A DNA stretch of 51,263 nt, from IMG/VR virus record IMGVR_UViG_3300010232_000005; one strand, written 5' to 3'. This stretch comes from a virus. Below are positions 3,905 through 51,263 of this stretch, in pieces (position 1 is the first letter of the stretch; each line of letters opens with the position of its first letter). Position numbers and translations under genes: made by a program. A model generated the notes under the pieces. The model was not told the origin of the DNA. It was given only the letters and a program-made list of their open reading frames with translations, and did no database searches.

Positions 3905-4447
3905 ATGTCGACGACCGTTGAACGTTCGCGTATGTCCAATTCGAAGGGGGATCGGTGGGAACGTAATTACGTTAACGCCCTATCAGCTAGCGACCCGGAA
4001 ACCGATAAGGGGGCGTATAACCGGGTCGGGATCGACGACTTTGCCTTCGTCGAACTTTTTACCGCTTTGCGTCTTCCGGCGTCGGGCGGTGGTCGTGACG
4101 CCGACCTTCCCGACCTTCATGTGTGGCTTCGTACGGGCGACGAAGTCTATCAATTCGCGGTCGAAGTCAAATCAGGGGCGGAACGCGTTAGCTTCGATAA
4201 CGACGAAATTTCGGCCCTTGAACGGTACGCACAAGCGACCGTGTCGACGGCCCTTGTGTTCGTACATATCGACAAGGATTCGCGTCACGACGATCTAGGC
4301 GGCGATTATGTGGTTCCTATCGACGACCTTCATTCGACCAACAAGGGGTATTCGTTCACGAAAATGCGTGACGGCGGGATCGACGTCGATCAATGTACTG
4401 GAATCCCGTTCGCGGAATGGGTGAAACGCCCGACGTCTTCGATTTAG
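3905..4447 (+). CDS. hjc: Holliday junction resolvase, archaeal Hjc family
   Basis: SKGDRWERNYVNAL ... LRLPASGGG..DLPDLHV ... FAVEVKSG ... ISALERYA, matching the Hjc motif order (KG..fEr, SG, D, E-x-K). The start is uncertain (3872, 3905 or 3932). Confidence 0.65.
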   Translation: MSTTVERSRMSNSKGDRWERNYVNALSASDPETDKGAYNRVGIDDFAFVELFTALRLPASGGGRDADLPDLHVWLRTGDEVYQFAVEVKSGAERVSFDNDEISALERYAQATVSTALVFVHIDKDSRHDDLGGDYVVPIDDLHSTNKGYSFTKMRDGGIDVDQCTGIPFAEWVKRPTSSI

Positions 4448-11053: not shown

Positions 11054-12499
11054 TTAGGTGTTTATTTGTGTTTGCCCGCTAACGCCTATCGTCGTGTATC
11101 CTTCGGTGGTGCGTGACGTCTTGTCGATTGCGAACGTTCCCGATATGTCTTCTTTCGGCCAATCAATTAATACCGATTGCCCAACTTGAACATTCCGCCA
11201 TACCGACCCCGCAAGCACAAAAGTAATTGCCGAGTCTTGCCATGCGTTATCGTTCAAATAGCCCCGTGCCCGTGCCGCTAGCTGTTCGCGGGTTCGAAGC
11301 GACCCGTCATTGATCGGTTCGGATCGGGGCGCTTGTTCATTATAGAATTCTACCGATGCCGTATCTTCGTACGTTGCTTGTAGGTCGTCACGACCTTGTA
11401 TGGTGACGACATTCGTGACGTCGAAGTCGCGGTCGACGGTGACGTCGACGACTTGCGTGCCGGAATCGTCGCGTATTTCGTACAAAGCACCTTCGTCGCC
11501 GGCCGATTCGAAAATAAGTCGGTTGTTTTCGTCGGCAAAGACGGTAGCACCCGCTTCAATCGCTAACGAATCCGCTAACGATAGTATGGATTCGTTCACC
11601 GTTCGCGTGATTTGATCGTCGGTGTCGTCGATAACGTACGTTAGTGCCGTATTTCTATCATTCACTGTGAACGGTGTCGCCCGCGCCATGTCGATAGCCG
11701 CCGCCCTATGTTCCGGTAATGTCCCTTGCACTTCGAAACGATACCTTAGCGTGTGGGGCGTGTTCCCGGTGGTTATTTTGGCGTCTTCGACGTCGAATTG
11801 ATACGTTCGCCATGTCGCTATTCCGCGTATCGGTATTTCCCATTCGTACCCGATTCCGTCGCCGTCGACTAATTCGACATACACGTCGAAGACGTTACCC
11901 CGGTTATTTACGACCATTCGGGTTTCGAATTCGTATATTCGACGGCCCGGTGCCGCTTCCGACGGTACATTATCGAATGTGACTTCGTACGATCCCGATT
12001 CGCCTTCTAATATTCCGACGAAAATTGTATCACGACCGAAGTTATTGATTCCGGAAGAATCATTAGTTAATTCGAATATATCCGATTCCGACGACCAATT
12101 CGACGTATCATCGGCAAACGATATTTTCCGACTTGTGGTGTAATTTTCTATTTCTTTGTTGATTGCACGGCGGAGTATTTCGGCCCGCGACAACTCGATA
12201 AACGGGCGGTTTACCTTCCCGTGTTCGGCTTGCCCCGCTAACGTTTCCGCTTCGATTGTTAGCGTTAGGTTTCGCATTTGTTGGTTCGACGGCTTCCCAA
12301 TTATTTCGCCCGACCACTGTTTGTCGCCGCCTTCGAATATTTCGACGTCGGCACCGGATACGGCTAAGGATCGGTTCGACGAACTATTGGCGACGACTGT
12401 TTCGGCGGTTCCGATTGAATCACCCGACGGTTTTTCGTATTTTACGTCGATTATGTTGGTCGGTTCGGTGCCGTCAATTTCGACGATTGGTGTTACCAT
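11054..12499 (-). CDS. Tail tip/baseplate hub protein (Tal-like by position)
   Basis: 481 aa, second gene downstream of the tape measure. Confidence 0.45.
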   Translation of the reverse strand: MVTPIVEIDGTEPTNIIDVKYEKPSGDSIGTAETVVANSSSNRSLAVSGADVEIFEGGDKQWSGEIIGKPSNQQMRNLTLTIEAETLAGQAEHGKVNRPFIELSRAEILRRAINKEIENYTTSRKISFADDTSNWSSESDIFELTNDSSGINNFGRDTIFVGILEGESGSYEVTFDNVPSEAAPGRRIYEFETRMVVNNRGNVFDVYVELVDGDGIGYEWEIPIRGIATWRTYQFDVEDAKITTGNTPHTLRYRFEVQGTLPEHRAAAIDMARATPFTVNDRNTALTYVIDDTDDQITRTVNESILSLADSLAIEAGATVFADENNRLIFESAGDEGALYEIRDDSGTQVVDVTVDRDFDVTNVVTIQGRDDLQATYEDTASVEFYNEQAPRSEPINDGSLRTREQLAARARGYLNDNAWQDSAITFVLAGSVWRNVQVGQSVLIDWPKEDISGTFAIDKTSRTTEGYTTIGVSGQTQINT

Positions 12500-49300: not shown

Positions 49301-49888
49301 TTAGCTTGTAGATTCTTGTTTATCCTGTTTCCTCCCAGGCTCCCCCGGTGGTAGGTCGTGCCGCTTCCGCCATTTGGTGATTGTTCGGGGCGCACACCCC
49401 CACACTTCTGCAAGACGGTTACCCGACATTTTCTTTAATCCTTCCCGCATTTCGTCGGGGTCGCGCCAAGGTGCTTCGCCCCACATATCGTCGCCGTGAC
49501 GTCGAGCGTGGTCGGCTATATTTACAACTTCAATATTTGACGGTCGGTTATCCCACCGTATCCCGTTCTTGTGATGTATTTGTTTTGGTCCGCCGAATAA
49601 CTGATATGGATCGGCACCGTCGGCGATAGCGACCAATTGGTGTAAAAATAGACGGTCGTGTGTTCCGAACCCGGTTGACTCTATTTCGACATAGCCGTCG
49701 GTTCGTGTTCGATACATGGTTCGATTCACCCGTCGCGCTTCGACCGCGTGTTCCCACGGTTCTTTTCCCATGCCAAAGTACCCGCACCATTCGGGGTTAA
49801 GGCTGTCGGCCCTTGCAGCTTCGTGTGTTCGGGCTGTTCGACGAATATCAGATACCGGAATAGTTATTACCGATTTGCTGTTTTTCAA
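49301..49888 (-). CDS. HNH homing endonuclease with a C-terminal HTH
   Basis: LHQLVAIADG...QIHHKNGIRWDNRPSNIEVVNIADHARRH (HNH_3 pattern) and LAEVWGCAPRTITKWRKRH. GC is low. The only available in-frame start is TTG 49888. Confidence 0.75.
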   Translation of the reverse strand: MKNSKSVITIPVSDIRRTARTHEAARADSLNPEWCGYFGMGKEPWEHAVEARRVNRTMYRTRTDGYVEIESTGFGTHDRLFLHQLVAIADGADPYQLFGGPKQIHHKNGIRWDNRPSNIEVVNIADHARRHGDDMWGEAPWRDPDEMREGLKKMSGNRLAEVWGCAPRTITKWRKRHDLPPGEPGRKQDKQESTS

Positions 49889-50060
49889 AATAGAAAACCC
49901 ACATAGGAATTGAAACTTCGATTCGCTATGCCGGTCGGGGGCGTTGTCGTGTCACAACGGACAGAAAACCCTCGTAGGGATTGAAACACGTGTCGAAGGG
50001 TGTCGACGACACCGCCCCCGACCGTCACAACGGACAGAAAACCCTCATAGAGATTGTAAC
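49880..50060 (+). CRISPR. Mini-CRISPR array: 3 repeats (37 nt) and 2 spacers (34 and 36 nt), with no cas genes
   Basis: R2 (49951-49987) is gtcacaacggacagaaaaccctcgtagggattgaaac. R3 (50024-50060) matches R2 at 34/37. R1 (49880-49916) is repeat-like only in its 3' 25 nt (22/25). The spacers are 49917-49950 and 49988-50023. The strand was inferred from the ATTGAAAC 3' end. Confidence 0.8.
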
Positions 50061-51263
50061 GACCCGCGAAGGTCGGTGCGACACCGGTCGGGGCACGCGA
50101 CGATTAGGTCGACGTTTTCGGTCGTGTTCCACCGGCTAAGTTTCACGGTGTATTTGTTCCGGTACGCATGAAGCCGCTTCCCGCACCACACGCACCGGGC
50201 AAGTTCGTCGAAGACCGCGTCGCCCTTGTCGGTCGCTTCCCACCGGGCGGCGGGGTCGTCGAAATCGGCGTCGTCTTCGTCGTCGACACGTCGGATTAGC
50301 CCGGCGTCGCGGGCTTCCCGAAGCACGACACGCCAATTCGAATCGTTGTGTGCGACGCCGTCGGGCCGGCGAAGCCCGGTGCCGGGCGACCCGTGCCCCT
50401 TCACGCGGCGTTCGCCTTGTTTCCCCGTCGGGCACGCCGGGGCGTCGTCGACGTCGGTGTCGTCGTCGCCCGACGCGATCCATGCGGGGTAATATTTGAC
50501 GTCACGAAGCAAGTCGCGGAACTTGCCGGCGGTGACGGAAGCGAAGTCGTCGAACAGGTCTTCGACGTCGTCGGGAAGGTCGGCGTCGGCGACCGACCAT
50601 TCGGGGTCGTCTTCGCACGCGTCGCACACGGGGTCGTCTTCCGCCGGGTGCGACCGTTCGGCACCGACGTCGCGTTCGGCACCGCACCGGGCACATTCGA
50701 ACGTGTCGATATAGGCGTCGGCGACTTTTTCGGCGTCGTCGTCTTCGTACGGGTCGCCGTCGTATTCCGCCGGAACGTGTGCGTCGTCGCGCACGCCGAC
50801 TACGAACCGTGAAAGGGCAAGTCGGCGAACGATTCGGGCGGTGTCGGCCTTGTCGTCTTCGTCGGCGTCGTCGACCCATTCGTCGGGGTCGAAGTCGTCG
50901 TCGTCGACGCCATGTTCGAAGACCGTGTCGTGCGGAACGGTGACGCGGTACCACGACGGCGTTTTGTGGTTCGGCTTGTCGTCGGGCGTCGGGCGGTATC
51001 CGACCGCCGCTTCGAACGGGCACCCGTCGCCGTCGCAGGTGTGCCGAATGACGTCGCCGTCGTAATCGGTCGTAAGGTCGTGATCGGGGTGGGGGCACGT
51101 ATAGCCGCCCGTGAATCCAAGCGAATCGGCGTCGGCGGTGTCGTCGTATTGTTCGACGACCTTGTGAACGACGACGCCGTCTTCGACGACTGTGCGGATT
51201 GATTGGTCGTGTCGAATCTTAACGTCGCCCGTGTCGGGTTCAAGGTGCCCGACCCAATCGTCG
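50045..51263 (-). CDS. C-terminal part of the wrap-around MVRHT-class multi-zinc-finger protein
   Basis: The frame of track ORF 50045..50794 is open upstream all the way to the window end (…DDWVGHLEPDTGDVKIRHDQSIRTVVEDG…CPHPDH…CDGDGC…). CARCG/CDAC and CVWCG/CPDRC pairs are present. The last 5 codons overlap CRISPR repeat R3. Confidence 0.7.
   Translation of the reverse strand, partial: DDWVGHLEPDTGDVKIRHDQSIRTVVEDGVVVHKVVEQYDDTADADSLGFTGGYTCPHPDHDLTTDYDGDVIRHTCDGDGCPFEAAVGYRPTPDDKPNHKTPSWYRVTVPHDTVFEHGVDDDDFDPDEWVDDADEDDKADTARIVRRLALSRFVVGVRDDAHVPAEYDGDPYEDDDAEKVADAYIDTFECARCGAERDVGAERSHPAEDDPVCDACEDDPEWSVADADLPDDVEDLFDDFASVTAGKFRDLLRDVKYYPAWIASGDDDTDVDDAPACPTGKQGERRVKGHGSPGTGLRRPDGVAHNDSNWRVVLREARDAGLIRRVDDEDDADFDDPAARWEATDKGDAVFDELARCVWCGKRLHAYRNKYTVKLSRWNTTENVDLIVACPDRCRTDLRGSLQSL

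Follow-up and report, generated by a model that had tools for sequence, protein, structure and literature searches.

A 51,263-nucleotide (nt) stretch of viral DNA, IMG/VR record IMGVR_UViG_3300010232_000005 (here termed the window), carries a genuine CRISPR mini-array that belongs to the type I-D repeat family and has no cas genes. The window is taken, from its closed ends and its gene content, as the complete, circular genome of a tailed haloarchaeal virus. Located on the plus strand and antisense to the neighbouring genes, the array is composed of three 37-nt direct repeats (R1, R2 and R3) that alternate with two spacers (S1 and S2; Table 1). Repeat starts are separated by 71 and 73 nt, as compared with a period of 71-75 nt in natural I-D arrays. 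The initial annotation, a reading of the letters alone, had already placed the three repeats and two spacers at these positions, and both the spacer lengths and the degree of match of R1 and R3 to R2 were borne out.

R2 is the only intact copy of the repeat. Its fold consists of a CCCT/AGGG hairpin of 4 base pairs (bp) followed by the 8-nt handle ATTGAAAC, in agreement with the hairpin and handle of the initial annotation. In R1, the conserved part is limited to positions 49892-49916 (AGAAAACCCACATAGGAATTGAAAC), the 5ʹ 12 nt of the family being gone; this copy retains an intact ATTGAAAC handle but a stem of just 2 bp. R3 differs from R2 at three positions, all within the 3ʹ 14 nt, which include a G to A change in the stem and an altered handle (ATTGTAAC).

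Chance similarity does not produce such repeats. Dinucleotide shuffles of the window contained 0 matches to the repeat within three mismatches, and the next-best 37-mer in the 51 kilobases (kb) is merely 21/37 identical to R2. Additionally, the Rfam family CRISPR-DR60 matches R2 with 35 bits (E=7.6e-5) and R3 with 29.5 bits (E=0.0022) against a gathering score of 45, and the Natronomonas-type family DR56 matches R2 with 23 bits against a gathering score of 35. These CRISPR-DR matches are significant, yet all lie under the curated gathering scores. The array region also folds better than shuffled sequence on both strands (z = -2.5 and -3.0). The absence of cas genes, likewise claimed at the outset, was upheld by PADLOC and Pfam scans of the 62 open reading frames (ORFs) in the 51 kb, which gave no match to any Cas family and no recognisable acr gene near the array.

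Table 1. Positions of the array, its parts and the surrounding features in the window; the two transcription signals are read from the sequence (aa, amino acids).
Feature	Position	Strand	Remarks
R1, degenerate repeat	49880-49916	+	25/37 to R2 overall; 22/25 over 3ʹ 25 nt
S1, spacer 1, 34 nt	49917-49950	+	imperfect reverse complement of 50006-50039
R2, sole intact repeat, GTCACAACGGACAGAAAACCCTCGTAGGGATTGAAAC	49951-49987	+	4-bp hairpin and ATTGAAAC handle
S2, spacer 2, 36 nt	49988-50023	+	target not found
R3, terminal repeat	50024-50060	+	34/37 to R2
Putative source or target of S1	50006-50042	+	S2 3ʹ 18 nt, R3 5ʹ 16 nt and AAC (5ʹ-GTT on spacer-sense strand)
Candidate archaeal TATA box for the array, TTATTA	49864-49869	+
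Possible archaeal termination signal, TTTT tract	50115-50118	+	55 nt past R3
Non-coding region between HNH start and R1	49772-49879		no likeness to conserved haloarchaeal I-D leader
Strain-specific 767-bp insertion	49304-50070		HNH gene, divergent promoter region, mini-array
HNH endonuclease gene, 156 aa	49301-49771	-	Pfam HNH_3, PHROG HNH endonuclease
Gene C-terminal half (ORF listed as 249 aa)	50045-50794	-	whole gene ~515 aa

Kinship with type I-D repeats

The I-D repeat family was defined from published haloarchaeal repeats together with metagenomic arrays adjoining I-D cas genes. Its 3ʹ module, GAAAACCC-N5-GGGATTGAAAC, comprises the short hairpin and the 8-nt ATTGAAAC handle; R2 carries it exactly, R1 with one mismatch and R3 with two. 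The same module, with different loop bases, is found in three published haloarchaeal 37-nt repeats (PMC5228507, Table S4), those of Haloquadratum walsbyi C23 (GTTGCAACGAAGAGAAAACCCGCTAAGGGATTGAAAC), Natronomonas pharaonis (GTCGAGACGGACTGAAAACCCAGAACGGGATTGAAAC) and Halorubrum lacusprofundi (GTCGAGACACTCAGAAAACCCAGCACGGGATTGAAAC), to which R2 is identical at 30/37, 28/37 and 26/37 positions, respectively. Strain C23 has two CRISPR systems, one of which is of subtype I-D (PMC3316494).

Scanning metagenomes for the repeat family returned 13 loci, the best of them 32/37 to R2. That locus, L102, has at least seven copies of GTTGCAACGGACAGAAAACCCGACTAGGGATTGAAAC, and its last repeat is degenerate. 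At L095, 52 copies of a repeat 30/37 identical to R2 lie directly downstream of an I-D cas operon encoding Cas6, a large unassigned protein, Csc2, Csc1, I-D Cas3ʹ, Cas4 and Cas1d (the matches of Csc2, Cas3ʹ, Cas4 and Cas1d are above NCBIfam cut-offs). The initial annotation had guessed at a class associated with I-D or III for a repeat of the form …AAACCC-N-GGGATTGAAAC; the published haloarchaeal repeats and the array beside this operon bear out the I-D part of that guess.

Natural arrays also resemble the viral one in polarity. In these arrays, the leader precedes GT… on the 5ʹ side and degeneracy is found in the last repeats, and the viral array, a plus-strand array antisense to its neighbours as first described, has the same strand and direction. 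Terminal-repeat decay follows the same pattern in R3 as in the natural arrays L102 and L099. Host I-D arrays (those of Hqr. walsbyi C23, Nmn. pharaonis and Hrr. lacusprofundi, and L095, L099, L100 and L102) thus share with the viral array repeat length, period, 3ʹ module, 8-nt handle, orientation and terminal decay. However, their identical repeats number in the tens, cas genes adjoin them and a conserved leader of ~140 nt precedes them, none of which holds for the virus. This leader is common to four haloarchaeal I-D arrays from different metagenomes (L095, 10582-10721; L100, 1056-1195; and two in L099, 1654-1793 on the minus strand and ~12260-12400). It follows the pattern …CCCTTATTAAGT…CTGTACAGCCC…GAGAAA…TATAACCGTATTTTCACCCCCT and ends in CACCCCCT, abutting the first repeat.

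A scan of 185,579 species-representative genomes (GTDB) with AACCCTCNNAGGGATTGAAAC yielded 74 loci without a single haloarchaeon, because haloarchaeal I-D repeats carry other loop bases. All arrays among these loci are cyanobacterial, the remainder being a few single matches in other bacteria. The 37-nt repeats of these Leptolyngbya, Phormidesmis and Nodosilinea-type cyanobacteria (L001-L074) are up to 31/37 identical to R2, as close as haloarchaeal ones, and underline the likeness of I-D repeats across both domains. The idea of a cross-domain oddity was dropped because published haloarchaeal I-D repeats have the module and differ in the loop.

Stricter searches were negative. Repeat patterns of 21-31 nt had no match in haloarchaeal genomes or metagenomes, a 31-mer pattern for near-exact R2 had none in metagenomes, and the 3ʹ 25-mer of R2 had none in IMG/VR. 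Plasmid and phage collections gave no useful repeat matches. The contigs L109 and L112/L113 (the latter two the same sequence), returned by the family scan of IMG/VR, are chance matches within coding sequence.

Two host contigs hold I-D repeats in other arrangements. L098 contains two of them 740 nt apart and not in an array (719-755 and 1459-1495), and L101 (10405-11741) has I-D repeats in two sequence variants, which lie on opposite strands and face one another. Both may represent stand-alone or regulatory repeats.

Spacer searches and the inverted homology of spacer 1

The initial annotation had described the two spacers as unique. They are in that no match was found elsewhere; they are not independent of each other, as S1 is 27/34 complementary to the end of S2 plus the start of R3. 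The comparison of the spacers with known viruses that had been proposed produced no protospacer for either one in the window, GenBank phages, IMG/VR or related contigs. The IMG/VR searches used exact 18-20-mers and one codon-degenerate pattern, and diverged targets could escape an exact-word search. In that collection, the 5ʹ 20-mers of S2 and S1 and the codon-degenerate S2 pattern had no match, and the 18-nt core shared by S1 and S2 had chance matches only. BLAST of both spacers against all fetched loci was negative, as was the reverse comparison of the 187 spacers of the fetched I-D arrays with this virus.

S1 is an imperfect reverse complement of the last 18 nt of S2 and the first 16 nt of R3 (50006-50039). 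The alignment score of 20 was reached by 0 of 4000 random genome windows (p < 1/4000). Moreover, the homology extends over the full spacer length and stops exactly at both spacer borders. On the spacer-sense strand, it is flanked by GTT, which fits the GTN version of the I-D protospacer-adjacent motif (PAM; GTN or GTH, PMC11640852). The fit to a motif deduced earlier for H. walsbyi (target-strand NGC; PMC3316494) is only partial. Six of the seven mismatches are within the PAM-proximal 16 nt, and seed positions 4, 5 and 7 are mismatched. Changes among the related pieces are uneven: the 5ʹ part common to R2 and R3 has 0/23, the overlap of S1 with S2 has 1/18 and the seed-side half of S1 has 6/16.

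S1 looks like a spacer that was once acquired, beside GTT, from the S2-repeat junction of this array or of a sibling array, and that has since been disabled against self by its seed mismatches. Acquisition from such a junction, in this array or a sibling one, with later loss of self-targeting is the simplest reading that we infer from this arrangement. An inverted duplication would be an alternative source, in which case a stop at the spacer borders would not be expected. A stronger version holds that the adaptation complex of a host I-D system once used the viral array as a live integration site, taking the prespacer from the S2-repeat junction of this array or of a sibling virus by its GTT PAM, and that the virus survived through mutations in the S1 seed. 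We regard this version as quite improbable, and equally so its corollary that S1 records array-against-array targeting or self-primed acquisition. The proposal that S1 and S2 derive from one coding target ("VSKGVDD…APDRHSES") was rejected, as the S1 half of that target aligns with the repeat and not with a gene.

Insertion locus and viral genome

The array is best described, from comparison with related contigs, as a strain-specific accessory insertion in a variable locus and not as conserved ordinary sequence. The contigs most closely related to the window are L106, from Lake Tyrrell, and L108; in BLASTN alignments with them, homology ends at 49303 and restarts at 50071, and these relatives have 159 nt of intergenic sequence and gene end in place of the 767 bp. 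In the six related contigs spanning the junction, the intergenic region is short, with neither HNH gene nor array, and L117 to L121 have this same short region free of repeats. Altogether, nine related contigs contained no I-D or I-B repeats. The alternative named at the outset, that the 181 bp might persist in relatives as ordinary sequence, was thus not observed. Derivation of the array from ancestral intergenic sequence was rejected too, alignment scores being at noise level.

Upstream of the array lies the HNH gene. Its start had originally been placed within R1, and is corrected here to the ATG at 49771; the 156-aa JGI gene call P0004 is 100% identical, and homologues are 155-157 aa long. 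With this start, 49772-49879 is non-coding. An HNH homologue occupies the same place in L114 with no array, and L115 and L116 also contain HNH homologues. Because repeats do not adjoin the gene in any of these three contigs, joint travel of the HNH gene and the array was rejected.

On the other side, the last 16 nt of R3 form the final five codons and the stop of a gene of ~515 aa (…GSLQSL, then stop). This gene starts at 384 on the minus strand and crosses the circular junction (384 to 1, then 51208 to 50045); its homologues in relatives are 421-567 aa long. Its native end was replaced when the array was inserted, and its C-terminus is for that reason unlike those of relatives. The protein has several CxxC pairs and no Pfam or PHROG match. 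A third spacer after R3 was considered and rejected, as the sequence there is a conserved gene end in relatives and resembles S2 to no significant degree (p = 0.09).

The first and last 55 nt of the window are identical (1-55 = 51209-51263), which indicates a circularly closed contig and presumably a complete genome of ~51,208 bp, with a G+C (guanine plus cytosine) content of 58%. The encoded virion proteins include the large terminase (TerL), portal, XkdF-type protease, tail tube, tape measure and a baseplate protein. TFIIB and Hjc serve as archaeal markers, and together with the virion genes they support the archaeal tailed virus that had been recognised from the start. TerL is closest to those of Halorubrum and Haloarcula tailed viruses (37-41% identity; 41% for Halorubrum virus Humcor1). 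An exact-protein look-up of the window's genes revealed no second copy of the virus, and single-protein searches of IMG/VR for relatives had no match.

Apart from the array, seven genes of this virus start with the same ATGGTGCGACAC(A/C)C, encoding MVRHT or MVRHH (minus strand, 384, 17008, 30160, 36118, 41110 and 44724; plus strand, 31745). Each start is preceded by a conserved module of ~45 nt (…CCGACACACTTATGTACCCC…AATAGGTAGAT), and the start motif has 9 matches versus 0.08 expected from mononucleotide shuffles. The repeated module resembles a promoter and leaderless-start cassette, with conservation that reaches as far as the initial five codons. L106, L107 and L114 also have related motifs ahead of genes.

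Known counterparts, proposed function and alternatives

Virus-borne arrays without cas genes have been described before, and the initial annotation overstated the novelty of one in a halovirus, since such cassettes were published for the halophage fosmid eHP-16 in 2012 and for the tailed cyanophage N-1 in 2016. Cyanophage N-1 has a transcribed, cas-less array of five 37-bp I-D-type repeats that is thought to have been acquired from a host (Chénard et al. 2016, PMC4916379). Like the present virus, N-1 is tailed, its 37-bp repeats are of the I-D (DR5) class and end in GGGATTGAAAC, and its spacers have no matches. Unlike it, N-1 infects a bacterium, its array combines an AT-rich leader with four spacers and five good repeats, and transcription was shown by experiment, whereas the present virus is archaeal, with three repeats (one intact) and no canonical leader. 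The second case, eHP-16, comes from a saltern, and its cassette consists of five repeats with four spacers (Garcia-Heredia et al. 2012, PMC3316494). It too is a haloarchaeal viral fragment with a cas-less cassette, repeats related to haloarchaeal ones and spacers without matches. The two differ in the number of repeats and spacers, and the TerL found here gives no pointer to the eHP viruses. Among GenBank phages, queries with an I-D repeat and an I-B repeat matched no halovirus.

A model for function is provided by the portogloboviruses SPV1 and SPV2, whose mini-arrays target each other and for which heterotypic superinfection exclusion was proposed (Medvedeva et al. 2019, PMC6858448). These are likewise archaeal viruses with a cas-less array of one or two spacers, which uses Cas proteins of the host. 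However, their hosts are thermoacidophilic Sulfolobales and their morphotype is another one, and four features of theirs, namely host-identical repeats, recognisable leaders, strain-variable spacers and spacers matching the rival virus, are not demonstrable in the present array. The regulatory CreA/CreR elements of haloarchaea, which are degenerate mini-CRISPRs (PMC9458426; bioRxiv 10.1101/2023.03.10.532045), similarly have degenerate repeats around a spacer-like segment that partly matches a nearby PAM-flanked site. Those elements reside within cas operons (type I-B and others), where a perfect seed match lets them repress the promoter of a toxin or of cas, whereas the present element is viral, has no cas operon and mismatches its sole partial target at S1 seed positions 4, 5 and 7.

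Two other contigs of tailed viruses contain CRISPR-like repeats. L111 (IMGVR_UViG_3300011185_000289), a 5.4-kb contig with TerL, portal and Mu-F genes, has at its end (5-259) at least four perfect I-D repeats of the Halorubrum lacusprofundi type with spacers of 35-36 nt and no leader-like sequence ahead of them. It represents either a further I-D array borne by a virus or the junction between a provirus and its host. L110 (IMGVR_UViG_3300031732_000004) is a related tailed-halovirus contig with portal/Mu-F and XkdF protease genes, between which (3955-4097) lies a full 30-nt I-B-like repeat (GTTCCAGATGAACCCTTGTAGGGTTGAAGC). It is directly followed by an I-D 3ʹ half-repeat (AGAAAACCCAAACCGGGATTGAAAC) and, ~70 nt further, by GGTTGAAAC. 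These side-by-side I-B and I-D mimics are a candidate RNA decoy.

The function that we judge most likely, with somewhat less than even confidence, is production of guide RNA that depends on host Cas proteins, with the S2 guide excluding a competitor. The plus strand of the array would be transcribed from a viral promoter just upstream of, or within, R1; a start ~25 nt downstream of the TTATTA element would fall near 49890-49895, where R1 conservation begins (49892). Cas6d of the host would then cut 8 nt before the repeat ends; R2, being intact, would be a certain site, and R1 and R3, being weakened, would be less certain ones. The processed plus-strand RNAs would be expected to measure ~60-75 nt and to begin with AUUGAAAC. 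Such CRISPR RNA (crRNA), above all ATTGAAAC-spacer 2, would be loaded into the type I-D Cascade of the host, and the infected cell would thus be armed against a rival virus or mobile element with a matching sequence by a GTN PAM. This role in superinfection exclusion is modelled on the proposals for SPV1/SPV2 and cyanophage N-1. Without a canonical leader and with a truncated R1, the array would probably no longer take up spacers; it looks like a fixed guide cassette driven by a viral promoter and not like an adaptation-competent locus.

Several results weigh against this function. R1 and R3 each have a stem-weakening G to A change and the R3 handle is also mutated, so that at most one guide, S2, is clearly makeable. 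In the precursor RNA, S1 and S2 can form an 18-bp stem around R2, which might hamper processing or loading. The conserved I-D leader is absent upstream of R1, where local alignment to the leaders of L095, L100 and L099 scores 8-9, that is, noise, as compared with 33-46 for host leaders aligned to one another. The host array with a matching repeat that the initial annotation suggested looking for was not found as an identical copy, the best match in the 185,579 species-representative genomes and the JGI metagenomes being the 32/37 of L102, and the spacer searches, as reported above, supplied no protospacer. Finally, the array is single-copy and absent from every related contig examined; hence, selection and spacer turnover are unsupported.

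Much of this would also be expected of a decaying relic, a fragment of an I-D array gained by recombination from a host or other element, perhaps with the HNH gene, and now functionless and drifting to loss. With only one of three repeats intact, the 5ʹ 12 nt of R1 missing, no leader, no spacer target and a single genome carrying the array among all related contigs examined, this explanation has real weight; additionally, the divergence of related pieces (3/25, 3/37 and 7/34) is of similar order, as under neutral decay. The changes are, however, unevenly spread between the repeat and spacer parts, as detailed for S1. R1 retains precisely the Cas6 and handle module, starting at AGAAAACCC as does the independent solitary element in L110, and compact viral genomes shed useless DNA fast. 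A relic is judged somewhat doubtful, though a serious rival. The same precision in R1 and R2 could instead serve an RNA anti-CRISPR decoy, in which R2 and the R1 3ʹ module would sequester Cas6d and Cascade subunits of the host in useless complexes and shield the virus from I-D immunity, with the spacers irrelevant. Phage Racr and solitary repeat units reportedly act as RNA anti-CRISPRs in this way, and Cas-protein binding is said to have been shown by Camara-Wilpert et al. in 2023. Those elements and the present one have in common a virus-encoded mimic of the host repeat without cas genes. A decoy would explain why repeats without cas genes copy so precisely the handle and conserved 3ʹ module that the host family has, with degenerate flanking repeats and no spacer target found, and the fusion of a full I-B repeat to an I-D 3ʹ half-repeat in L110 is dual mimicry hard to square with a guide cassette. 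Yet the known decoys are single repeats without regular spacers, whereas this virus has three in-register repeats with array-like spacing and spacers of normal length, and S1 resembles a product of real adaptation. No recognisable acr gene is nearby, and 0/187 I-D spacers from fetched arrays target this virus, which leaves I-D pressure on it unsupported. A decoy is judged unlikely, yet it is a serious rival.

Two further explanations question the element itself. Arrays are repetitive and prone to chimeric assembly, and the L111 array sits at a contig end; a host-chromosome array could thus have been misjoined to viral DNA, or a provirus could adjoin a host array. This is very improbable here, as the contig closes on itself by the 55-nt overlap, all recognisable genes are viral, and the array is internal with both flanks homologous to related viral contigs. 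Furthermore, R3 is fused in frame to the end of a viral gene, and the repeats show a degeneracy that those of a live host array do not. Hardly credible at all is the view that the region is no CRISPR but a set of iterons to which protein binds, or a structured element that regulates or terminates the minus-strand genes on its flanks. Its location between a gene end and the HNH promoter would suit such an element, as would the 34-nt imperfect inverted repeat that encloses R2 and the better-than-shuffled folding of both strands. Against this stand the identity of R2 to bona fide I-D repeats (30-32/37, including the invariant 3ʹ module), the 37-nt length, the ~72-nt period and the absence of the region from relatives with the same flanking genes.

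Similar cas-less viral arrays having been reported already, the present array is a good new example and not a new principle, and the general picture drawn from SPV1/2, cyanophage N-1 and halophage eHP-16 is unchanged. Particular to this array are a subtype that can be assigned with confidence, a complete viral genome, defined insertion borders and one spacer that is apparently self-derived. Reviews list two CRISPR types in haloarchaea, and type I-D is one of them. A complete viral genome in which the I-D module for Cas6 and the handle is mimicked exactly offers a concrete construct for testing. It raises the questions of whether haloviruses borrow the host I-D Cascade against rivals or jam it with decoy RNA, and whether host adaptation can use a viral array as its substrate. 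Taken with L110 and L111, the array suggests that tailed haloviruses capture repeats recurrently. If the live-integration reading of S1 were true, cas-less arrays of haloarchaeal viruses would not be passive cargo; they would join in adaptation and could be aimed at the equivalent cassette of a competitor.

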